The notes under the pieces were generated by a model. The model was not told the origin of the DNA. It worked only from the letters and a program-made list of their open reading frames with translations, and searched no databases. The position numbers and the translations under genes were made by a program. A DNA stretch of 64,000 bases, taken from contig JBNGIO010006370.1 in assembly GCA_049999805.1 (NCBI GenBank), positions 435,212-499,211 of the forward strand, given 5' to 3'. This document shows, in pieces, positions 3,288-62,227 of the stretch. The stretch is from Folioceros fuciformis (lineage: Eukaryota). Each line of letters opens with the position of its first letter. The first letter of the stretch is position 1.

Positions 3288-4560
3288 TCAGGAGACATGT
3301 CCCTCGATGATGAGGGGTGCAGATGTGGAACATTGGCATCTTTTGTTCATTTCACAAAGTTTAACAAGGTCCTTCACCTTTGCATATGCATGCTGTCCCA
3401 TCTCCACATTGCTGTCCGATTTCCTCAGGCACCCACAAGAGTGTGCAAAACTGCAGCATGAGACGGTACAGGCCAGGCCTCTACCATGTTCCCGTACCTT
3501 GCATATATGTGTTTCAGACTGATTTGCTTCAAGCACTTCAGCTTGAAGACCATGTTTCCAGTGTGTGAATTGAATCTGCCTTTCCAGGGACAGAGCTGCT
3601 GCATTTGAGCATGCCTGAAGGAGATCTGCTGGAAGCCCTCTCTGTTCGAGTTGTTTATGAAGCTGCTCCCGCTCTTCCAAAGCTGAAACTTCCACATTTT
3701 CCACATGCCTGCAGGAGGCACACGACTGTCAGCAAATCAGGCGCAGGGATGCCTTGATCTTGCATAGCTGTGCGAAGATGGAGTGCTTCATGACGTATGC
3801 CCTGTCAGTAGGGTTGACCATGTCACAGCACTTTCAGACTGGCAAACACTCCCTGGACATCATCTAGGCTGCCATACTTTGCCTACACCTCACTGCCCTT
3901 CTTCAAAGGTGGGTAGCTTGAGCATGCCCACAGGAAGCATACATGTGTCGCTGAATCAGGTGCAGCTATTCCTTCTTGTTGCACAACACTGTAAGGACAA
4001 AGGGACCTACTGCAGGATTCATGCATTGCAGAGAGTGTCCTTCTATCACGGCATCCCCACATGTTTTCTATGGAGTCTGTCACACACACTCTGAGCAGCT
4101 TCCACACTGCAATGCTTTGCATCATGTCCTCCAAGGCACTGCAAACAAATAGAACGAGCTCAACGCCGTTGGCCAGCACATGAGCCTGCACCTTCTGCCC
4201 TTGTCTTCGAGTCATTCCTCCTCGCGCAAGCCTACAGAGCTGCTACTACCACTTGGCTATCGTCTTCACATTAGACCACATGGCGAATCTGATCGTCCAG
4301 CTGTATACTTGCCCATGCTTGATGAGCCCGGAAGTTATGTCAGGCCAAGGGAAGGAATGGGGTTGAGCACATCCGTCCCATGTGATCCTTGCCATCTGGC
4401 ACGAGAAGCATACATTTGCAGCGTGCGATTGCACAAGACCTTGTCCAACTCGCACCCGACCGTGGAAGTCGTCAGTGTGTCTGTACCACAAGTTTCAGAT
4501 CCTGAACAGCCTTCTGATCAGAGAGCTGCCTTTCCCGACACAGTTCGCTCATCATTACAG
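3288..4560 (-). pseudogene. Decayed PLS-class PPR gene
   Basis: Fragments in shifting frames (GCELDKVLCNRTLQMYASR; VAAL*ACARRNDSKT/GQKVQAHVLANGVELVLFV; *AKYGSLDDVQGVF; PDLLTVVCLLQAC; VSALEEREQLHKQLEQRGL) are colinear with the PPR at 48808-51348, with stops and frameshifts. Ends approximate. Confidence 0.75.
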
Positions 4561-4917
4561 CCGCCAGGCAACAACAAGAACCAAACGACGGCCAATGGGC
4601 TCAGGAGACTCCCAGTCCCATCTTAGTACATGCAAGTCCCAGAGAACTTCAGACAACTAAATGCTACGACTAAACAGCCGGGAAAAAAACGAAAGAAGAA
4701 GAAGAAAAAAAAAGTCTATGCTACAGCAGGCACTGGCAGGAGGATGAGAGTTGTGTCCGCAGGCGGCGAGAAGGTGGTCGGGTAGCTCTTCCGTCAGCTG
4801 ATGACAAGGAAAATGAAAGACCATGCTGGAAATGCATCTGAGAGTGATACCGCACCGGCAGACTGAATCGATCAGAAGGAAGCCTTGTGCCATGTGAAGG
4901 TTCTGCCATGTACCAGT

Positions 4918-7173
4918 ATGGCAGCGGCATGGCAAAAGGATCATGTGTGGACCCAACAAATCGGTGGGTTGGCAAGCAATGATCTGGGAAGTGCCAGCGG
5001 ACAGCCGACTGTGAGGTTCGGGCGGGTGCCAAACAGCGAAGCCTGGAGGTGCAGCTGTTTCGCCAGGAGCCCAGCACGTTTGATAGAGCCTTCGGGTGGG
5101 GAAGGATTTTGCAACGATGGTCGTGGGAAGGAGCAGGAGCAAGAGCGGCTGTGGAGACAGTTTTTTCTGGATCCTAGCCTGTGGTGGGATAACAGGCGGG
5201 ACAGGAAGAGCTACCGGTCGCCTGACTTCAGGCACAAGGGGTCCGGCGATGTGGTCTGGTTGAATAACCTGTACAAGCCCGCTTGGGTGGACGAGCAGCT
5301 GGCTGCTCTAGACTTAGTGCAAATGAGTGGTGGTGGTGGTAAGACTCGCCTGCTGCAGTGCAGCCTGAGCAAGCTGTGTGACGAGGGAGAGCTAACACAA
5401 GCTGTTGATGCTTTGACTGTTAAGGTACAAGAGGAAGGTGGTGTGCCCACTTCTCTTTTGTACAGTGTCCTCAAAAGGTGTGTGGCTGAGAAGAACCTCG
5501 CTGTGGGGCGTCGAGTTCACGACCTCACTGCCACCCTTGGCTACGATCGTAGTTCTTTCCTAGGGAACCATATCTTGCGCATGTATGCATGTGCAGGTAA
5601 AATGCAGGAGGCTATGGATGTGTTCACCAAGGTTCGCAAACCAAATGCCTTCATGTGGTTTTCCATCATCGCTGCATATGCTAAGCATGGGAAATCGAAG
5701 GAGGCTATACTGCTGTACCGTGAGATGCGTCGCTCAGGCGTGAAGGCGAATGGTCACATATTTGCAGCTGCCCTGCAAGCTTGTGCAGCTGCCGGCGACC
5801 TGGAATCTGGCAGGCAGGTGCACACTGATGTGTTGCAGAGTCGCGTTCCTCCTGACTCGTTTGTTTGCACCTGCCTGGTGGACATGTATGCTAAGTGTGG
5901 GGAGATGGGAGACGCACGCAGAGTCTTTGATTGTCTGACCCAGAAGGACGTGGTGACATGGACAGCCCTCATAGCTGGGTATGCGACGCGCGGACTCGGT
6001 GAAGAGGCCCTTTCTCTGTATGTCGAAATGGAACAAGAGGGTTTGGTTCTGGCTGACGTCGTCACATTTGCTTGCCTTCTCAAGGCTTGTGCAAGCGCGG
6101 GTGCCTTACAGGTGGGCAGGCAGCTGCATTCACACATTTTGGAAAGCGGACAGCTAGAAGGCAACATTGTGGTCGGCACCTGCCTGGTGGACATGTATGC
6201 GAAGTGCGGAGAACTGGAAGATGCACGCAGAGTTTTCGACACGCTAGGCTCCAAGGATGTGGTGACATGGAACGTCCTGATAGCTGGGTGTGGGACTTGT
6301 GATGAAGGCCACGAAGCAGTAGCTTGCTTTGAGGAGATGTTGCTCGCTGGTATTCAGCCCGACGATGTCACCTTCACTTGCCTTCTGGGAGCGTGCAGCC
6401 ACGAGGGACTAGTAAGCGAGGGTCGTAAGCACTTCTATTACATGACCGAACAACACAACGTGAAGCCCAGCATCGAGCACTACAACGCCATGATTGATCT
6501 TCTCGGGCGAGCAGGGCATCTGGAAGAGGCCGAGACGATGTTGCTATCATGTGAGAGCCGAAATGACGTGGTCGGGCTGACTTCGTTGCTCAATGCCTGC
6601 AGAAGTCATGGAGACGTAGACAGAGCCACACGGTGCTTTCAGAGCCTTGTCAGACTGGACCCTCGGCACGCCTCTGCTTACGTGCAAGTAGCGAACATGT
6701 TTGCAGATGCAGGCAGGTGGACGGATGCACACAGGATTGAAAGCATGAGAAAGTCAGCAGGAGCTCAGAAGAAACCTGCAGTAGCTGGCATTGAAGTAAA
6801 CAGGCAGGTGCATACCTTTGTGGTAGGAGAAATTCGTGACGATATTTGGGTGAAGGTAGACACCACGCATGCTCGGCTGAAGGAAGAAGGGGGCCACATA
6901 CCGCACACAAAGTTGGTGATGAAACCGCTTTCTGAGAAAGAGAAGCAGGATGAGCTTTGTGGGCATGCTGAGAAACTGGCCCTGGCGTTTGGTCTCCTGA
7001 ACACTCCAAGTGGCAAACCTCTGCTGGTAACAAAAAACCTACGAATGTGCAGTGACTGCCACAGCTCCACCAAGATACTGTCAAGGATTGAAAAGAGAGA
7101 CATCGTCGTAAGAGATGCGTACCGCGTGCACAGATTTGCAGCTGGGTCTTGCAGTTGTAAGGATCGCCCATGA
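4918..7173 (+). CDS. PLS-class PPR protein with E1-E2 and DYW:KP deaminase-like domain (C-terminus DRP) plus an N-terminal OSB-like PDF motif; intronless; candidate U-to-C editing factor
   Basis: First ATG at 4918; about 11 PLS motifs; KKPAVAGIEV, HAEKLA, CSDC, SCSCKDRP*. Motif WRQFFLDPSLWWDNRRDRKSYRSPDFRHKGSGDVVWL starts at ~5150. Confidence 0.93.
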   Translation: MAAAWQKDHVWTQQIGGLASNDLGSASGQPTVRFGRVPNSEAWRCSCFARSPARLIEPSGGEGFCNDGRGKEQEQERLWRQFFLDPSLWWDNRRDRKSYRSPDFRHKGSGDVVWLNNLYKPAWVDEQLAALDLVQMSGGGGKTRLLQCSLSKLCDEGELTQAVDALTVKVQEEGGVPTSLLYSVLKRCVAEKNLAVGRRVHDLTATLGYDRSSFLGNHILRMYACAGKMQEAMDVFTKVRKPNAFMWFSIIAAYAKHGKSKEAILLYREMRRSGVKANGHIFAAALQACAAAGDLESGRQVHTDVLQSRVPPDSFVCTCLVDMYAKCGEMGDARRVFDCLTQKDVVTWTALIAGYATRGLGEEALSLYVEMEQEGLVLADVVTFACLLKACASAGALQVGRQLHSHILESGQLEGNIVVGTCLVDMYAKCGELEDARRVFDTLGSKDVVTWNVLIAGCGTCDEGHEAVACFEEMLLAGIQPDDVTFTCLLGACSHEGLVSEGRKHFYYMTEQHNVKPSIEHYNAMIDLLGRAGHLEEAETMLLSCESRNDVVGLTSLLNACRSHGDVDRATRCFQSLVRLDPRHASAYVQVANMFADAGRWTDAHRIESMRKSAGAQKKPAVAGIEVNRQVHTFVVGEIRDDIWVKVDTTHARLKEEGGHIPHTKLVMKPLSEKEKQDELCGHAEKLALAFGLLNTPSGKPLLVTKNLRMCSDCHSSTKILSRIEKRDIVVRDAYRVHRFAAGSCSCKDRP

Positions 7174-8034
7174 AAGTTCAGATGCATTCAACCAACACAT
7201 CAGAGATCACATGTCCCCACATCCACATCAGACGATGTTGGGGACAAGTCCAAGTCCCCGAGGAAGATAACTAACTGCAAGGGCTGTTCCCATTGCGCGC
7301 AGTGCGTTGCTCAAAGACATCTACCCAAGCTGTTCACATCGCGGGCAGTGCGTTGCTCAAAGACACCTTTTGGGTAGATGAGTTTTTCCATCTTATTTTT
7401 CTAAAATGAATAATTTTAATTATTTATGGACATAATATATACAGCCCAATAATTAAAATTTCGCCTTCTCCTTCCTTGTGCAACTTAGAAGCGGGAGCGA
7501 GTGATGTGGTGCAACTTAGAAGCGGGAGGAAGCACCTCACTCTTGCACTTCCTTGTCGTGGCTACTGGCCAGCACGCCCGATCGCTCCTCGTGCTTGAAT
7601 GAATCCGCCATCGTTGTTGCGATCGCTGCTGAGTCGCTCAAGAATTCTGACAAGTTCGAATCAGGAATAGTGCGGGGGCGACTTCTTCTCTTCCTCGATA
7701 GCCATGCACGGGGCAGGGAAATGGCATCTCCCCGGGGCACGGGGGGCTCAACGCCCATTCTACGCTCTGCAAGCGAATCAAGTGGCCACACATGGTGGCC
7801 ACTCATGGACCAATGGATGAACAATATGGGCTCACAAGTATTACGTCCAGCTCGTAGGAGTTCTTTCAAGGTATGCGGGGTACGCCGCCGTGAGCGCACT
7901 ACATCACTAAAAACGGCGAGGCCCAGGAGGCTCCCTACATCCCAAGCACGAGGCTCTACGCGCCTCAAGGCCCAGGATGATCCCAACATGCCAAGCACGA
8001 CGCTCCAAGGTGCATGCCTTGTGAGGGACTTCAT

Positions 8035-11000
8035 TCATGTGTCGATTGGTTGACCCGGCGTTGGAAACTGGCAAGGAGATCAAAACGAAATACGCCCAAT
8101 TTATTTGCGTAATACTTCCGGATCAGTATATCAAAATGCAGAGATGTAACGGAAATCACAGGGCCAGGTACCTTATCCAACCAGTCGTTGAACTTGTGCA
8201 ACTTATTATTACTAGCCCCACTTGCTACGCGTGCCCTCTTGATGGGGCGGTGGAACAGGTCTTCAGTATCCAACACATACGAAACCTGTGCAGGCCACGA
8301 TTTTGACTTAAACCCAGTACCATCTCAAGCTCTCCCGCATCAAGGTCATCTGAATCCATCCAAAACCGGAGACACAAACTTGGCAAATACCTTGAAACCA
8401 TTCGCTTGAATTTTGTACTCCAGACCATTTACCACCTGCACACCCTCCATAGCTTGCAAAGTAGCAGCACCCTCGTCAACCTCAGAAAACTTCCGTTTAT
8501 TCCTGAGAACAAAAACACCCTTCAATGATGAGCATGCTGCAAACATGGTTGTGAAATCTTCTCCACTCAGAGAGAAGCGCTTGTATCAAGATTTTCAACC
8601 TTGACAAGTACAAGTTTGATTTATTCGCGTCTGCTCCTGTGAGGAGAAACTCATTCAGGTACTCTGCAAACCCACGTTCCATGCCACAAGGGGGAACTTC
8701 CAACTTGTCTGCTCCACCGTCCATAAGCTGTATATGTAACTGAGTAGGATTCGATTTCTGCAGAGAGGACATCAATCCCATCAGACCGCCGTATTCAGCA
8801 CCGGCCATTGGCAGCTGCGATAAAGGAGGGGTCACATACGTCAGGACTAACCCGTTCAAATCTGTATATATTTTCATCATGCAACAGCACACACGCATTG
8901 GCAAAATAGATGGTATCACTTGAAAACCCAGGTTCTCGGGTCCTCTCATACGAATAAAGGGCCAGTAGTTTGGTGGCCATATCGTCAGTGGATATTGATT
9001 GAAGCTATGGAATCAAACAATTCAAACGTCAGTTGTACAACCCTGAGGAACCGTTAGCACTCTCGACAAATGTACGCACGTTCAACAAATCCACTTTCTG
9101 AGACACCTTTTCCCATCAAAACAAAACACTTTCAAACCTGTTTGGCAAATTTGTAGATTAGCTTATCCAAGGTAAACAGCACATACGACTGAGTTCCAAT
9201 AATTGTTCTGCACTCGTCCTCATATTTTGCACTGTCTGCAGAGCCATCCAGCAAGCTATACAGCACCCGCATAAACCTGGCCAAGACACACGCGAAGAGC
9301 GGTTAGAGCGAGGCACATTTTGACCTGCACTCTTCCGTACTGCATATACCTGACTCACCGTGCGTACAAATTTGGAGGGGCCGTGTCCTTCATGACTTTC
9401 CATTTGTGCTCAGCTGCTTGTGCATTTGTCTTGGCAGACAGAATGCGCTCGTACAAAATCTGGCAGGAAAATGCAACATGTTTTAGTACGCAGCCACTTG
9501 CAATCACTAGTAAATGACAACGAAATGTCGTTCCTTGTGCAAGAGCGGCAATCTGCCTCACCTGGTGCAATCTGAGGAGGATGCAAAAGCCATCGTTCCC
9601 ATAAAACGTTTCGGTGGGACCCAGCCCCGATGCGTCTACTGTTGCAGCTCGTGCCTCAAGAGGCTTGCACATTCCACATGACCTATCAGGCGATGCTAAA
9701 CGAAGATTCCCATCACCATCACCATCATCTGCATCTGCCATCCCCTCAGCTTCACCCTCACTCTCAGCTTTCCCTTCAAGATCATCGTCATCCTCCTCCT
9801 CCTCCTCATCATGTGATGGATCATCTCCATCCCCTGAATCACTACCTGTAACCTCTTCACCCGCTTCTGAGAGATTCTCACTGTCTTCGCTGGTCTTCTG
9901 GCCACTTTCCTCACCATCATCATCTGGATCGACATCATGCTCTCCCTCACCCTCGCCCTCTCCTTCACCATCACCATCCTCTTCTTCATCTTGCCGCTGA
10001 CTGGAATCTTTCACACCGTTGTCCTTGGCAGCGAGGTTACTTGCACACACATAAACATCACTTCGATAATCATCTCCTTCAGGAGAAGGTGACAACTCTC
10101 CTTCTTCTCGATCAACTCTTCCAGTAGGTCCGCCCAGAGACACATCAGGTTTGGTGCATTTTGCACCTGAAGACTCAGGCTTAAGAGCTTTCAACGCCTT
10201 GCTTTCCTGCATCCGAGAAAATTTTCAGCTGATTACATGGGCATCCCGTAGCTTGTAGTTTCAGAGCTCAAAAGTGCAAAAAATGCTTGAAACCGTGAGC
10301 CCCACCAAAAAGTAAAGGTGTAGATAACCTACCTTGTTCACCGCAGATGAAGAGTCTCCACCAGGGATGTTGACTGGGAGATTTCCTGCAGTTGATTCCC
10401 TTGCTGTAGCATCTGCTTGCCTACCATGCACAGGAGGCTGCTTTGATGCATCGCCAACTATTCCAGCATGCCCAACAGACCCCTCAGCACACAAAGCTCC
10501 CTCCTGAACTCCTTCCATTCCTTTCCTGGACCGTTGAGCAGCATCATGGGCAATGTCTCCAGAAACACATCCCATACGCTCACCATCTGGATTTGCTGCA
10601 GCTGACGAGTCACCAAATAATCCCTTGGGACAGCTTGAAGCTGTGGTACAGTCCTCAACAGTGGAAGTTCTCTCCTTATGGTCATTCCCCAATTCCATTG
10701 GGGCTACTGCCGCAATTTCAGCATTGTCACTATCTCCACTAGATGCACTTTCGCCACGACTTCTGCTGCTCTTTGAATCACTACCCTTTACCTTGACAGC
10801 CTCCTCGGCATCTTCCACACCTCGTGGTCGAGGTGGTACTCCATAAAATTTTTCAATAAAATCTGTCATGATCGACATTGTTTTGCTGCTATTCTCGGGT
10901 GAGAAAAGTTCATCACATGAGAATTTCACAATTTGGTACACGTCATTATGCACCGCTGGATCGGAGAACGTGAACTGCAAATCTGGAGCGATCCTTAGTG

Positions 11001-14000
11001 CATTCCCAGCTGCTATGGCAAATACTGTGTCATCTTCCCTCCTCTTTTTCTCACTGGTCTCTTTGATCTCGGCTAACATGCCTGGCAGTTTCAAGACGTC
11101 AGTCTCAAGGAATCCACGGCAAATCCCGAAATCATCAAGTCACTTTCTGGAACATAGGATAAATGAAGTCGGAAACCAAATTACCTTTCGTACTCAGATT
11201 CTTTTTGTCTTGCTGCTTGAAATAGAAGCTGCGATGGTCCAAAGACTTGTGGTAATTTTTGGCATACACTTCTGCCCAAACTTTGTTCATCTCAATGCGA
11301 GATTTCACCCATTCGTCTCGCTTCTCCTTGAGTCGACTGAGCACCACAGGCAATGACGTTGTAGAACTTTTCTTGAGAGAGTCAATGATGTCAAGGCCAT
11401 GATCGCCATACAGCCGCTCAATGCATCGCAAATTAATGGCTGCAAACCAACGTATCCCATGCCAATGAGAATCCTGTACGGTACCTGAGAAACTATGTCT
11501 GGTGTGCACCACGTCCGCAACAGGTTAGTATGCAATCATTCACAATACCTGACAAGTCTTCAAGTTGGAAGGATCCTTCCTCGTGAGCCCCTCCATCGTG
11601 AGCTCTCTGCATTAACTCTTCTATCCGATTTGCAGTAACTATTGTAGATTCCAGTAGCATGTCAAGCTCAAACCTGAACGCCACAACTACCATGAGGCAA
11701 CTATACAGCATAGCTCGCACCCAATGGACAAGCATGAAGTGGACATCCCCACACATACCTATCATCCTCACAGCGGAAAAGGCTCTCTTCATACTGGTTT
11801 TTACGCATGTGCTTGAAGGAGTAATCTTCACTCCCAGACGTGACAGAGACCCAGCTGTCATTCAAAACTGAATCTCCCAATTTTGTCCGATGACTTGTTC
11901 GGGGCTTTGGATACTGATTACAAAAATGCCATGTTAAGAACGAACATAGACAGTAATATCATACCTGAAGTGAGTGACAGGGGGATCCTTACACTCTTGG
12001 GCAGCAAACGATAACTTGGTGTGCAGCGATCACAGTTGGAAAGGTCAAGCTCAGATATTGGTTTGTTGAGGTACTTCTCTTTGCCAGACGACACAGTGCC
12101 TTTATGATTTTGTACCTCCTTCGATGCATGAAATGCAGGTCTGTCTCGGTCGCGATCCTTATCTCTCTCCCGTTCCCATTCTCGATCCTCCTTTTCTTTC
12201 TCACGAACTTTTTCTCGTTCCTTCTCCTTCTCCCGTTCTTTTTCCCTCTCTCTCTCTTTTTCTCTTTCTTTCTCCTTCTCCCTCTCCTTCTCCCTCTCTT
12301 TCTCCCGTTCACGCTTTTCCCGTTCTCGCTCACTCTCTTTCTCCTTCTCCCTCTTCTCCCTCTCCCTCTCTTTTTCCCGTTCCCTTTCCCGATCTTGCCT
12401 GTCCCTGTCTCTGTCTCGATCTCTTTCCCTGTCTCGATCCCTATCCTTGCTGTCCCGATCCCTGTCCCTGTCCCGATCCCTGTCTCTTTCCCGGTCCTTC
12501 ATATCCCTGTCCCTGTCCCTGTCCCGTTCACGATCCCTATCGCGATCCCTCTCTCGATCTCGATCTCTCTCCCAGTCCCTCAGTTCCCTTTCCCTATCAC
12601 GGTGACTATCCCTCTCGCGATGACCCTCCCTGTCCCGATCTCTGTCCGGTTTGTTCTTCAGAGGAACTCCTTCGGCACTTTCCAGCTCTGTGCAAGGAAA
12701 ACAATCCTTATAAGCAACTGCATTTGTAACTATCTTCACTATGATATCACCCACCCAAAATATGGCTTTTGAAAAGACGTTTCCAAACCATCACTTACTT
12801 CTGGAGACACCAGCCAGGTATCCTTCTGCAACACAAACATTTCTATGAGAAAAGTTACCATAAGCAACCACCATCTTGCCCAAAAACTTGATGACATAAT
12901 ACAAGAACAGGGGGCAGACAAGAGGTTCTAGTACCACCATTGCGGTCACAGCAAGAGAGGAAATCATTGAAGCCCTCGATCAGGTCTGAGTGCTTCCCCA
13001 ATATGTCTCCAACCTGCATAGAATGGTGAGGGCTTTAGAGTTCTATGCAGTCCCGAAGAGTCTCTGAGTGTTCCTTTTCTGACGTGTTTGCAATAATAAA
13101 ACCTACCCTAGACCCTATGCAAATACGTTTACAGTACAAAGGTTTACATATGGAGGAAAAACCTACCAAGCACAGCAGCTCCTGGCGGCTGATTATCTCT
13201 TGACTGAAAATATGCAAACACTTCAAGAATTCTTGGTACGTATCACGATTACGCAGCCTTGCCTTTACCCTGTCAAAGAAGGCGAGCTCCTTTTGATTAC
13301 TTGTACCTGCATGTGAAATCACTAAACCCTGTAAGATCTACTTTCCAAGAATGCAAAAGTTGGTATCAGCAGAAAAGGCGGGCAGGACAAATGCGAGCAC
13401 CGTTGATACAAAAATAATTGCATTTTAGCACTTCTTACTCTTAGATGCCGGCTTCTCATCTGCTGCACTTGACGGGCCAGGGGGGGATGGGAAGTTCTCA
13501 ACAGCGTCTCCAGCTTGAGACTGCTTGCGAATCAGTTCATCAGCCCTCCGAGCTGACTTCCGCTTATTGGGGAACCGCTGCATTTCCGAATCTCTCTGTT
13601 TATCCCGCTCGGCATCCTTCTCATCCCTATCCCTGTCCTTACGGTCATCTTTTCTCTCTCTTTCCTTATCAGTTCTTTTCCTTTGATCCTTGTCAGCACG
13701 TCCGCCAACTCGCTCAACATCTTTAACTTCCACCTTGTCAGGCCCTCGTTCTCGATCACCACTGGCAGCAGAGACCTTCTCCCTCTAAAGGAAAGACGGG
13801 TTATTAGGAGATAGAGAAGGAGAAATGGGTCAGACAGCATAGATTCGTAATCTCCCGAACCAAGAAAACTCTACAAGGAAACTAAGAGAGACATGGCACC
13901 AATAAACCACCCTAAGGAAACTTTCATGTAAAAACTTTCATGCTACCACATGCGAAAGCGAAATAATTATCAACATTCAACAAGAAGCCATTCCGAAAGA

Positions 14001-34407: not shown

Positions 34408-36731
34408 CTAGGAGAGATATTCCCACCCACAAGGACGCGTGTCGGAACACACCTGGTCAGCACCAGTCTCAGGTTCGAGCGATTGACGAGGCTCCTGACT
34501 TGGTTTTGTCTCCACCTGCTGAGGCGTAGAACAGGATACGGGTCCGGCCGTGGGATCATGGCTGCCACTGCTCTGCGTTTCCCTCAACACCAGTGGCAGT
34601 TCACTTGCTGGAGCTTGACCATGCCTCACAGGCTCACCTGCACTGTCCAGAAGACCCAGATACTTAGCCACCTTCGCCTTCGTCCTGAATATTTGACTCC
34701 GACCATTCACAGGAGGAGAGTGGTAGCAAATGTGCATCCTCCCGCGATCATGTTTCCTGGGTACGACCTGTGCTGTCCACCCGTCTTCTAGAACCCCACC
34801 ACATTCCGCGACGTACACCTGCAGCTCCTCCACGGCCTTGAGGACTCTACTGCTACCCGAGGAGGGATTCGGAACGGGGCTGCCCGTTACCGCTTCTCGT
34901 TCTGCTTCTGGCGCTTGTCCTCGGCTGCTTTCCTTCAAAAGCCCAAGGTAGCGAGCCACCTGCACCCTGGATTGCAGCCTGTGTCCGGACGGTGACAAAT
35001 AATAAGGCTGCAGACATTTCTGCTGCTTCACCCTCATGCACCGAGCCCTCCATCCCTTCTCGAGGACGCCACTCCGATCAGTCACATACGCCTGCAGCTT
35101 CTTCATGGCTTGTTCACACCTCCTCTCGTAATCCTCCTGCGTATACTCCACGCCATCATCAGCACATGCAGTAGCGTCAGGGTCCACCGCGCTTTGGGCA
35201 ACATTCTTGAAAGCGCTCCTCAGTTCCATTCTTGGACTCTGCTGCTGGAAGTCCGACATGTGCTCATCCCTGAGGTGTCAGACAGAAGCGTTATGGTCAG
35301 AAGCAAGTTGCAGGGCTGATGCGTCACACTTGCCACAGGAGGCTGGGAGCCACTACTTGCCTTGCCACTTTGTGAGAGTCGTTTGCAGACTCCGGGGTGT
35401 TCATGCTTCTGCTCCTCTTCTGTTGAGACCCCTCTTCCTCATCTCCTTGCTGTGGAGTAGCAAGTCCCGAACTCCAAGTGTTGCTGCCTTTCCTTTTAAC
35501 AGGATACTTCTTCCGCGGCGAGTGTCGATAGACGGACGAAGTTTGAGCCACACCGGCCTTCACCCTCCCCAGCTGCCAAGTCCAGGTGCCCCCAACATCT
35601 GCACAGGAAGGGCATAACCACTCATCCAAACGACGAATCTCAGCTCTGTCCAAGGCCACACACGCCATGTGGTAGCTGGAGTCGCACCTGTCGCACAGTG
35701 CCGAAGTATAAGCTCCTTCGGGCTTCATACAGGACTTGCACAAGACAACATCGCCTGCTTGCCCCGGAAACGGCGCAGCGCCTCCGGGGAAATGCGCGGG
35801 TGCGCCCAGCAACTGCACGGCCAGTTCCAGCGTGGACAGCTGGGAAGTGGATCCATCCCTCTGAGTCGGCCCCACATCGTCAGATGCGGCTTCATCTCCC
35901 ACAGCATCCAAAGGCTCTCGCCTCTCGCCAGTCACAGCAACAGCAGCAGCAGCAGCGAAACCCGTGTATTCCAGCCCTCGCAAGTCTGCCGAAGCGATTT
36001 CCCTTCCATGTTGTCCGAGCTCGAAGCCGTCCCCACAGGCAGCCACTTCCTGCTGCTCATACACCTCTGCAACACCAGCAGTAGCCACAGGTGGAGCTTT
36101 CCCTTTTTCTCTCTCCCCGCCCTCCTTCACCTCATGCCCTTTTCCCTGCCCCTCCTCGCCCCGTCCCCTGTCCCGCTCGAGCTCGTCTGGCTCCTCATCC
36201 CGCTCGAACTCGTACTGCTCCCTATNNNNNNNNNNNNNNNNNNNNNNNNNNNNNNNNNNNNNNNNNNNNNNNNNNNNNNNNNNNNNNNNNNNNNNNNNNN
36301 NNNNNNNNNNNNNNNNNNNNNNNNNNNNNNNNNNNNNNNNNNNNNNNNNNNNNNNNNNNNNNNNNNNNNNNNNNNNNNNNNNNNNNNNNNNNNNNNNNNN
36401 NNNNNNNNNNNNNNNNNNNNNNNNNNNNNNNNNNNNNNNNNNNNNNNNNNNNNNNNNNNNNNNNNNNNNNNNNNNNNNNNNNNNNNNNNNNNNNNNNNNN
36501 NNNNNNNNNNNNNNNNNNNNNNNNNNNNNNNNNNNNNNNNNNNNNNNNNNNNNNNNNNNNNNNNNNNNNNNNNNNNNNNNNNNNNNNNNNNNNNNNNNNN
36601 NNNNNNNNNNNNNNNNNNNNNNNNNCCTCCTCCTCCTGCTTCACTGCCATTACCACCACGCTGACCCTGGGCAATGCGTGTTCCACCTGCCCACCTGCAG
36701 CAGCTCCCGCTTCCCCCTGCCCCTCGTCCAT
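34408..36731 (-). CDS. MBD9-related protein: acidic N-terminus, PHD finger, two tandem MBD-like domains (termini uncertain; spans an N-gap)
   Basis: PHD CKSC...CDRCDSSYHMAC...WLCPSC followed by WQLGRVK. Two repeats LQ(A/V)YVxxxxGVLExGW...Y(L/H)SP..G...VA(R/K)YLGLL resemble the MBD9 MBD. GC-AG intron 35270-35360 joins the exons in frame. Confidence 0.8.
36226..36625. other. Assembly gap (Ns) inside the acidic low-complexity exon
   Basis: Run of ~400 N flanked by Glu-rich coding sequence. Confidence 0.95.
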
Positions 36732-40194: not shown

Positions 40195-40597
40195 CCTGCC
40201 GGACCCGACTGCGGCAATGGTGAAGGCCCAGGCAGACATGCCGGGCCCGACTGCGGCAATGGTGAAGGCCCAGGCAGACATGCCGGGCCCGACTGCGGCA
40301 ATGGTGAAGGCCCAGGCAGACATGCCGGGCTCGACTGCGGCAATGGTGAAGGCCCAGGCAGACATGCCGGGCCCGACTGCGGCAATGGTGAAGGCCTAGG
40401 CAGACATGTTGGACCAAGGTCCAGGCAGACATGTTGCACCAAGGCCCAGGCAGACATGTTGGACCAANNNNNNNNNNCCAGGCAGACATGTTGCACCAAG
40501 GCCCAGGCAGACATGTTGGACCAAGGCCCAGGCAGACATGTTGGACCAAGGCCCAGGCAGACATGTTGGACCAAGGCCTAGGCAGACATGTTGGACC
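40195..40597. repeat. Composite minisatellite: ~5 x 42 bp followed by at least 7 x 25 bp, with a small N-gap
   Basis: 42-mer GGCCCAGGCAGACATGCCGGGCCCGACTGCGGCAATGGTGAA; 25-mer GGCCCAGGCAGACATGTTGGACCAA. Confidence 0.92.
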
Positions 40598-43532: not shown

Positions 43533-46118
43533 ATGTTGTGGACAGCTGCTGGATTTCGCAGCGTCCCGCGAGAGGAAATGCACCAGCTTCACTTAAGGGC
43601 GTGGCGCACAAGATCACCTTGGTCCACTACAGACAGGAGCACGAGATGCCCATGCAGCTGTGCGGCCCGTTACGGAGACGGGTAGTTTGACATTCCTAAG
43701 CGATCCGTCTACAATTTCTCGTCATGAACGATGTGCTGATGCTGACTTTCTTCTGATTCTCATTGGGTGACCTATCCTCCTTGCAGGAATGATTCTGCAT
43801 ATGTCCATGGCTTGAACGTCCTCTGCCAGGAGGAAGGGCTTGACCCGGGATTTGCTGCCCAGCAGCAAGGAAGTGTGCTCTTGTACAGGAATCTTTTGCA
43901 GTTGTGCACCAGAAACAAGGACCTTTTAAAGGCCAAGCAGGTACATGCTCATTTGGCAAAGCATGGGTGGGAATCCAACATTTTCCTCAGCGACTTGCTA
44001 GTCACAACATTGGTGAATTGTGGGGGCCTTGCAGATGGGCTTCCACTGTTTCAAAGGTTGTCACACCGCAACGTTTTCTCCTGGACTGCCATCATTTCAG
44101 GCTTCATCGATGCTGGACGATGCCAGGATGCTCTCATGTGCTATGAGCAGATGCAAGGGGAGGGTGTGCAGCCCAACAGTTATACATTCGTCGTTTTACT
44201 GAAAGCCTGCAGCAAGTTACAAGACCTGGAGGGGGGGAAGCGGATCCATGCAGATGTGTGCAGACATGGGGCTGAAAGTGATGTGTTCGTGGCCAGTAGC
44301 TTGGTTAGTATGTATTCAAAGTGCGGGAGCATCATGGATGCACGGCAGGTCTTCGATGGGTTGCCCTACCCTGATGTTGTGGCCTGGAATTCCATGCTCG
44401 CCGCATATGCTCAACAGGATCGAGGAGAGGAGGCCCTCAACATATTTTGGGGAATGATTGAACAAGGGTTCACTCCACAGGCGAGGACGTTTGTCAATGC
44501 TATTCAAGCTTGTGGCAGTCTCAAAGCCGAGGAGGACAGTGTTCTTGTGGATGGCCACATCGCCAGCGTGAAGGTACTGCATGTCGGAAAGGTAATACAT
44601 ACGCTGGCTGCTGCGCACGAGTTCGAGTCAAATATTTTCATTGGCAACAGCTTGGTCAGCATGTATGCAAAATGTGGGAGCATCAAGGATGCGGAAAACG
44701 TGTTTCACAGATTGTCTCGACGCAATGTGGTGTCATGGTCTGCAATGATCGCAGCCTATGCCCACCTGGACCAAGCAGATGACGCGCTGAGGATGTATAG
44801 GCAAATGCAGAATAAAGGAGTGAGAGCAGGTGCAAGGACATTTGTCAGCGCTCTCCAAGCATGTGGCAGCCTAGCAGAACAAGAGGCTATCGCACTTGTG
44901 GATGGGCGGAAGGTGAAGATAGGGTGCTTGCAAATGGGGAAGGAGATCCATGTTGCAGCCAGTGATCGGGGGTTCGGTTCAGATGTGTTTGTTGGTAGCA
45001 CTCTAGTCAGTATGTACGCAAAGTGTGGGAGCATTAGGGATGCCGATGCTGCCTTTGCGACCTTGTCAGGTCGCAATCTGGTGACATGGAATGCCATTAT
45101 TTCAGCTCATGCTCAGGAGGAGGATGGGGGAAAGGCTTTGCAACTGTATGCCCAGATGCAAGCCGAGGGTGTGAAGCCGGATGAGGGTACATTTGTCTCT
45201 GTCCTGGAAGCATGCAGTAACTCAGGAGCCTTAGGCATGTCTACGCGCATCCACGAGAAAATCGTGGAAAGTGGATTGCAGTACAATCGCCGTGTGGCAA
45301 ACTGCCTGATTCATGCATACAGCAAATGTGGAAGCATGGTGGAAGCGCAGCAGGTGTTCAATTCAGTGCCTCACCCAGATGTCGTATCATGGAGTGCAAT
45401 GATTTCTGGGTATGCTGGGGCAGGAAAGTGGGAGGTGTGTGTGGAACTCTTTGATGAGATGCGTAGAGCAGGCGTGCAAGCAAATGGCGTTACATTTCTG
45501 GCACTTCTTTCAGCATGCAATCATGCTGGCATGGTGGACAAGGGGCTGGAGTACTTTGAAAGCATGAGTAGAATTCATGGCATTTGCGCTGGCCTTGAGC
45601 ACTATTCTTGTGTGATTGATCTCCTGGGACGTTCAGGACGGCTCCGCGAAGCAGAGGAACTGCTTGCCCAAATGCCGATGCAGCCTGATTTACCCGTTTG
45701 GTCCTCTTTACTAGCTTCCTGTAGAAAGCACGGTGATGTGACTCTAGGACTGCGAGCATTTCTGGGTGCTGTGGAGTTGGAACCCGGACATGCTGCGGCC
45801 TATGCGATCATGTCAAACATCTTGGCTGATGCCGGCATGTGTGAGTGTGCGAAGATGGTGGATGACTTAAGGGAGCAGGCCTTTGCACGGAAGAGGAAGG
45901 CTGGCATGACCTGGATAGAGCACGAGAAGGAGGTGCATACATTCAAGGTGGAAGACCGCAGGCATCATCAATATCCCTTGCTGTGTGGAATCCTTGCAGG
46001 TTTGACATCAGCGCTAGAGGAGGCTGGCAACATCCCGGAAGCGAGCTTGCTTACATATCCACGGGCATCCGAGGCTGCTGATGTACAGAGGCACACGAAA
46101 ATGTCGGTCTTCAGGTGA
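43533..46118 (+). CDS. PLS-class PPR protein with LL-type extended L motifs, E1-E2-E+, no catalytic DYW; 2 exons
   Basis: Exon 43533-43681 (transit-peptide-like) splices via a GT-AG intron 43682-43786 into ORF 43767-46118. Ends KAGMTWIE...AGNIP with no HxE/CxxC. Confidence 0.88.
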
Positions 46119-48807: not shown

Positions 48808-51348
48808 TTACAGTTCATTTTGCAAATTTGTGGGTGCAGGGTTTGAATGATTTGTCATGGAAGAAGTGGCGAGCTTTGGGACATACCCTGCGCTCTCCAA
48901 TACAGGAAGAAGCTGCTTCAGCATTGCATGTATAACGTCGGTTTCGGGGTGGCTTGTACCTCCAGCCTCAAAGGTATGCACCAGCCCCTGCATGTCTGTC
49001 CACCAGCTCTGGCCTGGCTGCTTCAATGCACCGATTTCCATTCTCTTTCCTTGCACCTCTTGTGCCTCTTCCTGCATCTGGGCACTCGTATATATGCTGG
49101 ACATCAAGACGTATGCTGCAGCATCTCTTTCGTCCAGCTTCAATGCCTCATGGAAAGCCTGGCGTCCCACCTCCACGTTGTTCCACTTCCGGCAGGCACC
49201 CAACAGGGCGTGCCAGACTGCATCATATGGCTTTACGGGCATTGTGCTCACCAACGATAGTGCCTCATCTACTTGGCCTGCACGACCCAGAAGGTCTGTC
49301 ATGCATGAAAAGTGTTCGGGAGTGGGAGTGACGCAGTAGTGATAGCTCATAGCCTCGAAGTACTCTCGCCCTGCGTTTACTAGACCCCCATGGCTACACA
49401 CTGTTAGAACATTGAGGAATGTGATGTCGTCCGGCTGTATGCCATCCTGTGTCATTCTGTGAAACAAATCAAAGACCACTGCACTGTCCCCTTGCCGGGT
49501 GTATCCTGCAATGAGAGCATTCCAACCTACGATGTCTCGTTCTGGCAATACATCAAACACCTGCTGTGCATCCAGCATACTCCCAGACTTTGCGTACATG
49601 TTTATTAGACTATTCAGTACAGTCACATCAGTTTGAAGCCCTTGTTCCTCAATCTGGGCGTGAAGCTGTCGCCCTAAATGCAAAGCTGCCACACCTGCGC
49701 AAGCTTGCAGGAGGCACACAAATGTCACAACAGACAAACGTGCAGCCATGCCTTCTTGGTGCATAGCACCGTAGAGACCGAGGGCTTCCTGACCCATGCC
49801 CATCTGGGAATATCCAGCTATAAGAGCTGTCCAGGTTACCACATCCTTTTGAGGAAGCCTGACAAACACGCTATGAGCCTCGTGTAGGCTACCGCACTTG
49901 GCATACATGTTCACCAGGCTGCAACCTACCACCACATCAAACTGAAGACCTCTGGCTCTAATCAGAGAATGAAGCTGCTTCCCTGTTTCCAAAGCCGGTG
50001 TACCAAGACTTGCACATGCCTGCAAGAGGCACACAAATGTCACGGAATCGGGTGCAACGAGGCCTCGTTCTTGCATGACACTGTACAGGTGAAGGGCTTC
50101 CTGACCCATGCCCTGCTGAGAATATCCTGCTATCAGGGCATTCCAGGTAATAACATCTTTCTCACCAAGTCCATCAAACACGTGCTGAGCATCCTGGAGG
50201 CTGCCACACTTGGCGTACATGTTCACCAGGCTGCAGCCTACAACTACATCAACACGAAGTCCTCGTTCTCCAATCAGTGCATGAAACTCCTTCCCCTTCT
50301 CCAAAGCTGAGACACCCAGGCTTGCACAGGCGTGCAGAAGGCCCGCAAACGTCACACAGTCAGGTGCAGTCATGCCCTCTTTTTGCATCACAGCGAAAAG
50401 ATGGAGAGCTTCTTGGCCCATGCCCTGCTTGGAATACGCTGTTATCATGGCATTCCATGTCACAACATCTTTTTGCCTCAGTCCCAAAAACACTCTTTCA
50501 GCATCGTCCAAGCTCCCACACTTCGCATACATGTCCACCAGGCAATTACCAACAAATAAATCCGACTCAACTCCACTGGCCACCACATCAGCATGCACCA
50601 ACTGCCCCGTTTTCAAATCTGCTCCTTTTGCACAAGCCTGCAGACCTGCCACAAAAACATGCGCATCCGGCTTCACACCTGATTTGCGCATTTGCTGGTA
50701 GAGTTGTATGGCCTCCTTAGTCCTTGCACGCTTAACCAACGCAGAGATCATGGAGGACCACATGAAGGCATCTGGTTCGGCAACCATGGTGAACACATCC
50801 ATCGCTTCTTGCAACCTGCCATGAGAAGCATACATCCTGAGGATGTGGTTGCCCAACAGGGTGTTGGACTCGTACCCCTTCTTCACGGTGAGGGCATGGA
50901 CACGGCGACCCAAAACCAGATCCCCTTTCACCACACATTCTTTGAGCACACTATAGAATCGAGTGTGGGAGACAGGACAGTCTGTGTCCACCAGAACGCC
51001 GAGAGCCTCAACGGCCTGCATGCGCTTCCGCTGCTGACATAGTCTAGTCACGGTCTCCTCTGTTGCGCTTCCTTCGGATCTTACAAGCCTACGAGAGCCC
51101 GAATCATTCACCCTTGCTGGATTGCGCATATACAACCAGAGGACGTTGTCAGGCTCCAGGTGGCGGGATGTCACGTTTGCAGGGTTGGTGCAATGGGTGT
51201 CGTTCTCTGCCCACGCCACCCGCCTAAAAGCCAGATGACCAGGAGGCGTTTCTGGAACATATACTTGTTGGATGCAGCAGAAATGTGTCCCCATTACATC
51301 GTGCTGGCCAGTGCGAGGGTAGTATTGTGTTACGCTCCAGGCAGCCAT
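48808..51348 (-). CDS. PLS-class PPR protein with E1-E2 and a truncated WW-type PG-box/E+ (no catalytic site); intronless
   Basis: ATG at 51348 (MAAWSV); about 17 PLS motifs; KQPGQSWWTD...SHP...GYVP, then stop before HxE. Confidence 0.9.
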   Translation of the reverse strand: MAAWSVTQYYPRTGQHDVMGTHFCCIQQVYVPETPPGHLAFRRVAWAENDTHCTNPANVTSRHLEPDNVLWLYMRNPARVNDSGSRRLVRSEGSATEETVTRLCQQRKRMQAVEALGVLVDTDCPVSHTRFYSVLKECVVKGDLVLGRRVHALTVKKGYESNTLLGNHILRMYASHGRLQEAMDVFTMVAEPDAFMWSSMISALVKRARTKEAIQLYQQMRKSGVKPDAHVFVAGLQACAKGADLKTGQLVHADVVASGVESDLFVGNCLVDMYAKCGSLDDAERVFLGLRQKDVVTWNAMITAYSKQGMGQEALHLFAVMQKEGMTAPDCVTFAGLLHACASLGVSALEKGKEFHALIGERGLRVDVVVGCSLVNMYAKCGSLQDAQHVFDGLGEKDVITWNALIAGYSQQGMGQEALHLYSVMQERGLVAPDSVTFVCLLQACASLGTPALETGKQLHSLIRARGLQFDVVVGCSLVNMYAKCGSLHEAHSVFVRLPQKDVVTWTALIAGYSQMGMGQEALGLYGAMHQEGMAARLSVVTFVCLLQACAGVAALHLGRQLHAQIEEQGLQTDVTVLNSLINMYAKSGSMLDAQQVFDVLPERDIVGWNALIAGYTRQGDSAVVFDLFHRMTQDGIQPDDITFLNVLTVCSHGGLVNAGREYFEAMSYHYCVTPTPEHFSCMTDLLGRAGQVDEALSLVSTMPVKPYDAVWHALLGACRKWNNVEVGRQAFHEALKLDERDAAAYVLMSSIYTSAQMQEEAQEVQGKRMEIGALKQPGQSWWTDMQGLVHTFEAGGTSHPETDVIHAMLKQLLPVLESAGYVPKLATSSMTNHSNPAPTNLQNEL

Positions 51349-59405: not shown

Positions 59406-61221
59406 ATTGTATCCTTTTTTTAATCCGAAAATCATTGCGGTTTTAAATTTTGTTACTATTATCCGAGTGATTGAGAATTTCTCGTTATGTGTAATGAAAT
59501 GAGTCAACAATATCAATCATACCGCCTTTTACATCCACCGGAATATAATTTATATGCAAATATGTTGCAGAAATCTTAAAATGATATGCTTATATGTTGC
59601 TGAAATCTTAAAATGATGCACAACTTTGAAGCTACTTTTGATTATTGAGCATAATCCATTTCAGACAATGTATCCAATAAGTTATTTTTTACCACTGTAA
59701 TGAGATTTTGCTCATGGGCAGTCTGTATACATTGCGCAAGAGAGTTTTACTTAGAGCCAACCTTTTTATCACTAAGGACAACATGTTTCTATCGATGATA
59801 TCCTTATCATGGATTTCACATTTGATTTGCAAGCACGTCGTCATCCACCTCCCTAGATGGGCAGCAAAGGGTTGTGCAAGTGCTTAAGTCCATAATTATT
59901 CTCCCCTACAAAATAGGCATGTTTTTATCCCCCTTACTCTTGACACAAGTAGGGCAATGACTTTTAAAGGTTGAGCAAGGAGTGTGCAAAGGTGTGTTAC
60001 CATCATAGGATCGAGGTTATTCCTCTTTCTAAGTGGTGGCCTTCTCTGATAACATGTCTCTATTCCTTTGCAAAGTGCATTAGCCAAAGTGGTCTTTAGA
60101 AGCACAACAATTACAGGTTCGTAGCTTCTCGGCACCACTGATAAGTAGGTCACTTCTTATTTTGCATCATCACAAGAATCGCAATACTTGTAATACATAC
60201 TGTTAACAAAGAACAAAGCAATATTGAACAAGAAAGTAGCAGCACTATAGCTTCTTAAATTAATGGTTTATGTAAATCAGTTAAACATAACAAATCCCCT
60301 AAGTAAAAAAGTACATTAATTATCTATGTAGTCAAGAAAAGGACTTAAAACATACATTATTATCAAAACTAAAAGTAGACCCTAACTTAATCCATTTCTG
60401 AAAGACATGACTCTAGTTCTGGGTAGACTTGTAACTCTAATAAACAAGAGTGCCATTTTTAGTTTTCCACTAATTAGATATTAAAACATACTATGTCATC
60501 CATAACTGGGCATAACCCTAATTTGTAGTAGCCAATATATAAGTGAATGTGTTATAGTTTGTCATAGCTTGCTCACACCATAAATATTCACCACCATTGC
60601 TATGTGCAAAGTCAAGTTACATTGATGTCATGCTTCTTCTTTATCAACCCAACCCTACTACCCCTTACTTTGCCCTCAACACTATAAGTTAGATCCTTTT
60701 ATGTCTCTTGTCAAAAGGTCATAGGAGTATAAAAAATATAAATTTAATCCTTAAGTTTTTCAACCCTTCACTATAATCTTTAGGAACATTTTTTTCTTCC
60801 ATATCGTAAAGTAGATTTATGTTAAGTATTGATTGAAGTGGTTGTATTTTATATCTAGCCAAAGTATTAAAACCATTACAAATATTCAAAGATTACTAAG
60901 AGTATAAGCATAAGAGTATTGGACTTACTTTCTTACTATGTGCGATATAAATCTTCAAATAATGATCAGCGAGCTCAAGAATTCTTCTATCGATATATTA
61001 TGGTTCCATAATTCTATATATGTGTGGTAAGGATGCATTATGTTTAGGCATATTGTTTTGGACTCCTAGAACATTACTTGTAAGTAATTAATGTCTTAGT
61101 AGTTCTAGACTTGTATGTAAGTAGTGGAAAAAGTGACTTGTATGAAGTGACAAAAGTTGAAGTTATCATATTTCAAGTATTCATGATTTTGCATTGGTTT
61201 TGTAGTTATTTGTCTGAAGAA

Positions 61222-62227
61222 ATGTTTGCCAAGCTGGGAACTCTCGCTGAGCTCATATGGTGCCAACCTGATTGGTTACCAATATTTATTGGGTATGATT
61301 ATCATAAGGTGTGCCCATTGCACCCTCACATGGCAAAGTCAGGGTGCAACAAGTTTTGCATTGAATGTCAGGTTGCCCCATTTTGTGGCGAATGTAGCAA
61401 AACCTCTCATGCAGGACATGAAGTACTAACTGTTAGAAAAGTGAATCGACGTTATGGTATCTACACTTCAGAGATTCAATCTCTTGTAGGACCTATGCTT
61501 TATATTGGGGATGTTACTACTTTCAAGTGTAACGACAAGGAGCACACAATTTTATCTCCCAAAATACAAGATTCAACATGTACGACTTCGACATCTGAAT
61601 TAACGTATCACTCTTTTGTTGATTCCGAAGGATGTAAGAGCTTAAAGACTTATTGTAGCCTTAATTGTAAGTTAATGCATCTTGGATTAGACGGGTTTAG
61701 ATTGCATTGCAACGTGCCAAAGAAAAGGCGATGTTGTTGCACAAATTCTTATCAAAATAATACAACAATGAAGAATGCGATGTCTGACAATGTTATTGGT
61801 ATCACAGGTAACAATTTCAATTTTTTGCTTTTTGCTATCATTATGAGACGTCTAGAAGATGTTTAACAAAAAGCTTATATGACTATGTGATGTGCACTTA
61901 TTCATGTTTGTGGGTATAATGTAAAAAACAGGAAACGTGGAAGCTTGTGACTTGAATAGATCTGGCAAGGAAAAGGAGAATGAGCCATCCCAAGTAGAAG
62001 CTAATGACCCTAACAAGCCCATGAGTGAGGATGAATTATCCCATCCAAAAGATTATGGACCTAACGAACCTATGGATGAGGCAAGTTTAAGCAAACTTGA
62101 AGAAGAAGCTTTAAATGGCCTTCATTTAGCAAGGATGAGTGACAATAGTCATGATCAAGAAGCCTTTAATAGTGGATGTAGAAGTTTAGATGAATTGAAG
62201 GCTCTACTTAGAGGTTACAACAAATAA
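61222..62227 (+). CDS. Divergent PLATZ zinc-binding transcription-factor-like protein, 2 exons
   Basis: PDWL..CPLH...CNKFCIEC...FCGEC...HAGHEVLTVRK and YCSLNCK. Exons 61222-61807 and 61932-62227 join in frame (phase 1). Confidence 0.72.

Follow-up and report, generated by a model that had tools for sequence, protein, structure and literature searches.

A predicted PPR-DYW:KP RNA-editing factor of Folioceros fuciformis carries an OSB-type PDF domain and appears to belong to a recurrent class of seed-free land plants

PPR-DYW editors are well studied and are being made into programmable tools for C-to-U and U-to-C editing, and their N-termini tend to be regarded as targeting sequence and nothing more. 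The DYW:KP type is described as differing from the DYW:PG type in the region of the PG box, and an alanine is highly conserved in KP (PMC9478123). The KP domain has 132-133 amino acids (aa) and a conserved lysine, Lys88 (PMC11845758). DRH and GRP variants are named among the hornwort KP proteins, and U-to-C activity of KP has been shown for designer KP proteins (PMC9478123). The OSB proteins have a central domain like an OB-fold or SSB and, C-terminal to it, one or more PDFs, motifs of about 50 aa with the P-D-F signature and a core of W, D, R and K. In these proteins, the PDF is reported to be responsible for the binding of single-stranded DNA (ssDNA), and in OSB1 to be sufficient for this binding (PMC6963530, PMC6451138, PMC4166229). 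Here, we analysed a stretch of 64,000 nucleotides (nt) from Folioceros fuciformis (GenBank assembly GCA_049999805.1, contig JBNGIO010006370.1, positions 435,212 to 499,211 of the forward strand), hereafter the window. It contains an intronless gene, at 4918-7173 on the plus strand, for a predicted PPR-DYW:KP protein. The segment 5149-5301 of this gene almost certainly encodes a genuine OSB-type PDF domain within a PPR editor. What appears to be new is the recurrent combination, the editor class and the PDF domain each being already known.

Translation of 5149-5301 gives precisely the 51 residues that were listed in a preliminary description of this DNA, where they were said to fit the PDF motif of the OSB/PTAC9 proteins. 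Within an open reading frame (ORF) of 751 aa, they occupy positions 78-128. Pfam, which has no model of the PDF, places no family over this stretch at E ≤ 10. The phmmer search with residues 70-134 against 1,835,955,588 representative proteins gave 612 matches at E ≤ 1e-3, with 163 at E ≤ 1e-10 and 15 at E ≤ 1e-30. The named matches of the phmmer and profile searches are OSB1, OSB2, OSB3 and OSB4 proteins of many seed plants, plus algal relatives. In a BLASTP comparison with a Populus nigra protein annotated as "protein OSB1, mitochondrial-like", both PDFs of the latter align, with identities of 44% (E 1e-17) and 47% (E 2e-15). The check proposed in the preliminary description was a hidden Markov model (HMM) of OSB-type PDFs. 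Such an HMM, made from 359 PDF segments of proteins that showed no PPR region to phmmer, finds this ORF among the 1319 six-frame ORFs of the window with an E-value of 4.9e-22 and 73.8 bits. The homology is borne out by all three methods. Of the 16 columns that are invariant or nearly so in the alignment of PPR-linked PDFs, 14 are kept in this copy, and the other two have conservative changes (K to R and L to V). One further PDF-like match in the window, at 60521-60616 on the minus strand (E 0.017, 16 HMM columns), has stops all around and was taken as chance.

Pfam and the motif map place the PDF between the N-terminus, which is variable, and the first PPR-like motif, as was described earlier. 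No OB-fold or SSB domain (PF00436 or other) was found in the ORF by Pfam at E ≤ 1. The OB-fold of OSB proteins is described as poorly conserved (PMC13393729). As judged from its sequence, the protein is not a member of the OSB family, since it has neither the OB-fold nor a PDF in C-terminal position, yet its PDF is a bona fide one.

The rest of the protein has the features of a PLS-class PPR editing factor. The Pfam families PPR, PPR_1, PPR_2, PPR_3 and E_motif are present, and the motif lengths alternate in a map made with a self-profile. In the KP domain, the segment K-K-P-A-V-A-G, residues 618-624, occupies the place of the PG box of DYW:PG. HAE, with alanine for serine, is found at positions 65-67 of the domain and CSDCH (CxxCH) at positions 93-97. 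A lysine is at position 88, in a register that is our own assignment, counted from K619. The C-terminal triplet is DRP, which is neither of the named hornwort variants. By every sequence feature tested, the product of 4918-7173 belongs to the PLS-PPR DYW:KP (U-to-C type) subgroup.

The reading frame starts at the first ATG, at 4918, with an in-frame stop upstream (TGA, 4864-4866), and it is uninterrupted, with no N anywhere in the gene. One exact contig of another data set, X1 (Table 1), also takes in the start codon together with the PDF and the initial PPR motifs; X1 is a sequencing run of guessed type, and the contig itself is not proven to be RNA. However, X1 also contains RNA-derived contigs, as shown by a 2051-nt contig from which six or more short CT..AC segments of the adjacent gene, on the minus strand, are missing. 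No joint that removes the PDF is listed among the X1 contigs inside 4727-5590. The single ORF and this jointless contig agree with the preliminary description, in which the ORF was said to be intronless. The summed depth of X1 contigs over the bin that holds the PDF, 5074-5307, is 208, while the adjoining bins have 12 and 27. Therefore further contigs, at least 90% alike, cover the PDF stretch, and this excess hints that the organism has more transcripts with a PDF. Two bins without X1 cover, 2500-2967 and 7414-7647, were not used as evidence. An A/G-rich low-complexity run is located at 4682-4718, about 200 nt 5' of the PPR start codon; the X1 contigs break there, and the contig upstream of it covers 4206-4628.

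The structure of residues 70-134 was predicted with AlphaFold2 from 46 aligned PDFs, with a mean predicted local distance difference test score (pLDDT) of 92.5 and a predicted template modelling score of 0.76. The predicted PDF is composed of a helix, residues 71-84, three short strands at W-W-D, F-R-H and V-V-W, and a second helix, residues 123-133. When residues 60-330 are modelled, pLDDT stays at about 90 or above in the PDF and in the helices of the PPR tract and drops under 50 in the hinge (residues 133-144). Such a profile agrees with a PDF that forms a unit of its own on a flexible linker, and less well with one packed as a cap against the solenoid. No sequence in the Protein Data Bank (PDB) matches the PDF profile, and Foldseek against the PDB gave 0 matches at E ≤ 0.001. 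A wide VIA-align comparison with 48,161 chains gave a best Z of 3.8, with none at 5 or above, a weak match that is no proof of a new fold. The ESM Atlas gave no usable match to the PDF. The prediction of a PDF homodimer scored 0.01, which counts neither way.

PDFs linked to PPR tracts were found repeatedly in other plants. The lists on which this statement is based are the tops of rankings and not a census. Among the representative matches listed, 16 of 150 are PPR proteins in which the PDF precedes the PPR tract. With a profile built from 17 PPR-linked PDFs, 577 proteins match at E ≤ 1e-5, and of the 120 profile matches listed, 50 have PPR Pfam families (46 from Diphasiastrum complanatum and four others), eight of these ending in GDYW. 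Of 115 full-length PPR proteins related to that of the window, 13 also have a PDF, a Calypogeia fissa protein among them. The HAE-type relatives with a PDF are P0107 and P0275, which both end in GRP, and P0312, which ends in DRH. The named sources of PDF-PPR proteins comprise a liverwort (Calypogeia fissa), a moss (Sphagnum compactum), lycophytes (Selaginella and Diphasiastrum) and the ferns Adiantum, Ceratopteris and Pteridium, the Pteridium entries being ORFs of transcripts. Both the protein of Sphagnum and the DYW proteins of Diphasiastrum, with their HSE and DYW, are DYW:PG proteins of the ordinary kind; therefore the PDF is not tied to U-to-C enzymes. On the side of the seed plants, no PDF was found in the six PPR rows with a seed-plant name (four of Cryptomeria, one of Telopea and one of Macleaya), nor in 19 PPR rows marked "Gb_", which were taken to be Ginkgo. 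The named seed-plant rows among the profile matches listed are all OSB-like and have no PPR domains. From these sequences, PDF-PPR proteins form a recurrent class of seed-free land plants, with liverwort, moss, lycophyte, fern and hornwort-type members, and the class includes DYW:KP, DYW:PG and E-type proteins. The PDF-PPR-DYW:KP architecture noticed in the preliminary description is thus real, but it is peculiar neither to this gene nor to DYW:KP enzymes, since DYW:PG and E-type proteins carry the PDF as well.

Other PDF-bearing proteins came up in the same searches. Kingdonia uniflora P0002 (1160 aa) has PDF arrays, with up to 13 copies in one angiosperm protein. The PDF is found fused to a kinesin motor in Coptis chinensis P0038 and to an ICR2-like protein in Striga hermonthica P0029; both were set aside as probable merged gene models. 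PDF-bearing proteins are also present in the chlorophyte algae Chlamydomonas incerta (P0192), Ulva (P0210) and Scenedesmus (P0258, "OSB4"). The sources differ on this group: Chlamydomonas reinhardtii has no OSB genes according to PMC13393729, whereas a review, PMC4166229, describes the PDF motifs as conserved in green plants including C. reinhardtii. A pattern search of metagenome loci, meant for dN/dS, gave 185 pattern matches, of which none was confirmed.

The PDF-PPR proteins have a stereotyped layout: an N-terminal region of some 80 aa that varies, one to three PDFs, a hinge of roughly 20 aa and the PPR tract. In 63 of the 64 full-length-looking proteins among the stored matches, all PDFs precede the PPR tract. 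The exception, P0190, has four PDFs in the middle of the protein and has the look of a merger of two gene models. The median start of the first PDF is residue 77.5 (78 in the window protein), and the median gap to the first PPR match is 21 aa (n = 64). One PDF is present in 16 of these proteins, two in 39, three in eight and four in one; in the lycophyte proteins, the copy number is raised to 2-3.

A FastTree phylogeny of 318 PDF segments, 114 PPR-linked and 204 others, needs six changes of the PPR label, compared with about 93 when the labels are shuffled, and none of 500 shuffles was as low. In this tree, the PDF of the window protein belongs to a clade of 16 rows that are all PPR proteins, with a Shimodaira-Hasegawa-like support of 95; it is joined there by P0107, P0275, P0312 and PPR proteins of ferns. 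The IQ-TREE analysis used 84 rows: 38 PPR-linked segments, out of 114, and 46 of the remaining 204, the latter picked at random among those with at least 55 aa whose proteins have at least 250 aa. The tree that keeps all 38 PPR-linked PDFs together is 13.7 log-likelihood units above the free quick tree, with a p-value of 0.72 in the approximately unbiased test. An alignment of 65 columns gives low power; a single origin of the PPR-linked PDFs is not rejected by these sequences and is the favoured reading, and the class is apparently ancient. The core of the domain is common to both sets: 14 columns reach at least 80% conservation among the 114 PPR-linked PDFs, and these 14 do so again among the 204 others. 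The PPR-linked PDFs have a signature of their own, which consists of an F-F-S-D-P-S-Q type segment, an alanine at column 60 and a loop that is two residues longer, and the window copy has this signature. The preliminary description had also considered a duller alternative, in which an OSB fragment was recruited together with a targeting peptide. This does not hold up well: Pfam finds no OB-fold in the protein, PDFs linked to PPR tracts group as a separate lineage, and residues 1-77 are unlike the OSB protein tested, no similarity to the Populus OSB1-like protein having been found in a comparison that is a weak test, as targeting peptides diverge fast.

Constraint on the PDF was judged by region-wise protein identity. 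The closest relative of the window protein is P0107, a protein of 753 aa and of the GRP type. The two are 61% identical in the PDF, 57% in the PPR tract, 63% in the E motif and 72% in the DYW domain, while the identity is 26% in residues 1-77 and 22% in the linker. The PDF is kept like the functional domains and unlike its flanks, because its identity of 61% is to be compared with 22-26% in the latter. The situation is different in two paralogues within the window (Table 1), whose identity to the window protein is 50-54% over the PPR tract but no more than 22-24% over the PDF region. The paralogue at 52118-54523 on the minus strand has 24% identity in the PDF region and 50-72% elsewhere, and BLASTP of the N-termini finds in it a match of 12 residues around P-D-F-R-H (E 0.036). 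PDF relics are also found in P0336 and P0315. By these sequence comparisons, the PDF is ancestral to this group; some lineages maintain it and others have lost it by decay.

A PPR tract and its RNA run parallel to each other, so that the N-terminal motif contacts the 5' nucleotides. In the proposed explanation, the PDF folds on its own, is held by a flexible hinge and binds single-stranded nucleic acid whatever its sequence. Hinged about 20 aa before the first PPR motif, it would contact the strand that the PPR tract binds, immediately 5' of the tract's footprint, because the N-terminal PPR motif sits on the 5' side of the RNA. From there the PDF might strengthen binding, hold the target in single-stranded form and assist the editor in finding or retaining its site. 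Homology and layout make accessory single-strand nucleic-acid binding, with either ligand, the probable role of the PDF. We lean to RNA over ssDNA, and the narrower proposal of an RNA-side helper is a tentative one that falls somewhat short of an even chance. The explanation taken as a whole, from the identity of the domain and the class of the protein to its service as an accessory single-strand binder, we consider evenly balanced between right and wrong.

Several points weigh against this explanation. The function of the PDF in PPR proteins is inferred from homology and geometry. The predicted fold has no clear solved relative, so the structure adds no independent support for nucleic-acid binding. 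Recombinant OSB1 and OSB2 prefer ssDNA over double-stranded DNA or RNA according to a review (PMC4166229), which favours a DNA ligand. Among the DYW relatives retrieved, the PDF is present in 3 of 17 of the HAE type and in 5 of 43 of the HSE type, and it is dispensable for many of them. The PDF of P0107 lacks the proline of P-D-F and one tryptophan, and both in-window paralogues keep only collinear PDF relics. Finally, cleavage of the targeting peptide might also take the PDF away.

The leading idea of the preliminary description was a tether to nucleoid ssDNA or transcription bubbles, with co-transcriptional editing. On this reading, the PDF would bind ssDNA of the organelle nucleoid and so concentrate the editor at the place of RNA synthesis; replication or recombination intermediates, transcription bubbles and the displaced strand of R-loops would be the sources of ssDNA. 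The binding of ssDNA by OSB PDFs, and their preference for it over RNA (PMC6963530, PMC6451138, PMC4166229), are in favour of such a tether, as are the fully kept core of the PPR-linked PDFs and a genetic link of OSB1 to R-loop control (PMC8330923), and the flexible hinge of the model would fit it. However, the PPR-linked PDFs are a separate lineage with its own signature and longer loop, so that the ligand preference may have shifted, and most editing factors, close KP relatives included, work without a PDF. A nucleoid tether is less likely than not, though in view of the reported ssDNA preference it comes close behind the RNA-side helper. It is also conceivable that the PDF does not bind nucleic acid at all and is a protein-protein module, which oligomerises or recruits OSB, Whirly or other parts of the editosome. 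AtOSB2 is reported to assemble as a tetramer (PMC6963530), although the passages on this tetramer do not say which part of the OSB protein mediates it. Small tethered domains are often adaptors, and seed-free plants have no MORF partners (PMC13386178). Against this, the binding of ssDNA is the sole function reported for the PDF, and its conserved positions are aromatic and basic (W, F, R, K), which we take as typical of nucleic-acid surfaces. We consider a protein-protein module improbable.

The decay seen in both paralogues, in P0336 and in P0315 raises a different question, namely whether the PDF is an evolutionary leftover, fused to an ancestral PPR gene, spread by the retroposition-driven expansion of the family and functionless here. 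That only a minority of the relatives carry the PDF, and that the copy of P0107 is partly degenerate, point in the same direction. But where constraint is lost the PDF decays visibly, and the window copy has not done so: its conserved columns are kept or conservatively changed, and it is far better conserved than its flanks. Furthermore, the core is kept across liverwort, moss, lycophyte and fern PPR proteins, and copies were raised in lycophytes. There is thus only a slim chance that the domain is a mere leftover. An artefact, in which the PDF and the PPR tract would come from different genes or exons and have been brought together by a faulty gene model, a misassembly or chance, can be considered because some PDF fusions in the databases (the Coptis kinesin, the Striga ICR2-like protein and P0190) look like merged models. 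Here, however, the ORF is uninterrupted and without N, and 4727-5590 is bridged by the exact contig from X1, a separate data set. The layout recurs in contiguous ORFs taken independently from other assemblies, as well as in transcripts of Pteridium, and the E-values exclude chance. As far as these checks reach, an artefact is refuted, and its probability is negligible. An accessory binder of single-stranded nucleic acid is the explanation that we carry forward.

Table 1 Features of the PDF-PPR gene, of the contig that spans its 5' part and of two paralogues in the window.
Feature	Position	Strand	Evidence or description
Intronless ORF, 751 aa + stop	4918-7173	+	N-terminal region, PDF, hinge, PLS PPR tract, E1/E2, DYW:KP; ORF list and Pfam
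Residues 1-77, variable N-terminal region, presumed organelle targeting peptide	4918-5148	+	K+R 9, D+E 9; 26% identity to P0107
PDF domain core, residues 78-128	5149-5301	+	HMM alignment spans residues 71-133 = 5128-5316
Gly-rich hinge, residues 133-144, joins PDF to first PPR-like motif	5314-5349	+	pLDDT < 50
PLS-class PPR tract, about 11-12 motifs, residues about 149-563	5362-6606	+	Pfam PPR families; self-profile motif map
E motif (E1/E2), residues 564-626	6607-6795	+	Pfam PF20431, E 3.5e-14
DYW:KP-type domain, 133 aa from K-P box (residue 619)	6772-7170	+	Pfam DYW_deaminase, residues 659-749, E 1.8e-32; counting
Exact 864-nt contig, run X1 (0 other letters, 0 gaps)	4727-5590		Start codon, PDF, first PPR motifs; no joint
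Paralogue, 801-aa PPR-E-DYW:KP (HAE, ends DRR); PDF relic at about residues 44-95 (54239-54394)	52118-54523	-	HMM E 0.9
Paralogue, 846-aa PPR-E protein without deaminase; possible relic of PDF C-terminal half and linker, about residues 40-115	48808-51348	-	BLASTP E 0.001

The window has four PLS-class PPR genes in its 64 kb. In addition to 4918-7173 (+) and the two paralogues, there is a 660-aa ORF at 44136-46118 (+), which has PPRs only and whose start looks truncated. Two of the four, 4918-7173 (DRP) and 52118-54523 (DRR), are of the DYW:KP type; the 846-aa protein of 48808-51348 has an E motif and a PG-box-like stretch, with no deaminase. The gene next to the PDF-PPR gene is located at 7659-9500 on the minus strand. 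It is covered by the 2051-nt X1 contig, with a depth of 267, and the skipped segments, at least six, are 82-133 nt long; their CT..AC ends correspond to GT..AG introns on the minus strand. Introns this short, together with an E-type paralogue that has no deaminase, suggest a hornwort-like source. Two large acidic ORFs, 9355-10212 and 10261-11079 (-), have no Pfam match and may belong to the 7659-9500 gene. A 283-aa ORF at 34408-35259 (-) has a methyl-CpG-binding domain (Pfam MBD, E 6e-13), and a second MBD-like repeat is seen by eye only. The assembly has gaps of 400 N at 36226-36625 and of 10 N at 40468-40477. The G+C content falls to 0.36 at 60001-64000, compared with 0.45-0.55 elsewhere in the window.

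No literature that links the PDF to PPR or DYW proteins was found in the searchable full texts, where an earlier remark, for example in supplements, is not excluded; the preliminary description likewise knew of none. A 2026 kingdom-wide survey of editing factors (PMC13386178), which covers RRM, MORF and OZ fusions, has neither "PDF" nor "OSB" in its text, and in a 2026 survey of OSB proteins (PMC13393729), which required an OB-fold and a PDF, the term "PPR" does not occur. Dozens to hundreds of PPR proteins with 1-3 PDFs, from all seed-free lineages sampled, would point to an overlooked accessory role, in substrate capture or in coupling to the nucleoid. PDF-PPR proteins offer a testable handle on editing without MORF and widen the known roles of the PDF, which may also serve as a small natural add-on domain for engineered PPR editors.

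Compared with the OSB proteins, the window protein has the same kind of PDF, 44-47% identical to those of the Populus OSB1-like protein and with the 14 core columns in common, and both are organelle-type proteins. However, it has no OB-fold, its PDF is N-terminal (residues 78-128 of 751) instead of C-terminal and is followed by PPR, E and DYW regions, and PDFs linked to PPR tracts make up a distinct lineage, marked by the F-F-S-D-P-S-Q type segment, the alanine at column 60 and the longer loop. With the hornwort-type PPR-DYW:KP proteins, which are the basis of the designer U-to-C editors KP1-KP3, it shares the PLS tract, E1/E2, the 133-aa KP domain, HAE, CxxCH and Lys88; it differs from them in that it ends in DRP, where its closest relatives end in GRP or DRH, and in its N-terminal PDF.

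The MORF/RIP proteins of seed plants may be functional analogues, as accessories that raise the RNA binding of PLS-PPR proteins, an effect of MORF that is named in a title in the reference list of PMC9478123; this likeness is speculative. MORF/RIP is an unrelated domain that acts in trans and has no homology to the PDF. MORF is found only in seed plants (PMC13386178), and PDF-PPR proteins were seen only in seed-free plants, a complementary spread that is suggestive but drawn from incomplete lists. It is possible to go further and to regard the PDF-PPR proteins as ancient, undescribed editors of single origin, in which an SSB-type module does in cis what MORF, a later solution of seed plants, does in trans, strengthening and stabilising the hold on single-stranded substrate, and/or docks on nucleoid ssDNA and so couples C-to-U and U-to-C editing to transcription, the distributions of PDF-PPR and MORF being one replacement; in this extended form, the proposal is doubtful. 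The RRM-PPR fusions and the ORRM-type editing factors (PMC13386178) share with the window protein the presence of a general binder of single-stranded nucleic acid in cis with PPR or editing modules, but the binder is an RRM domain there and a PDF here.

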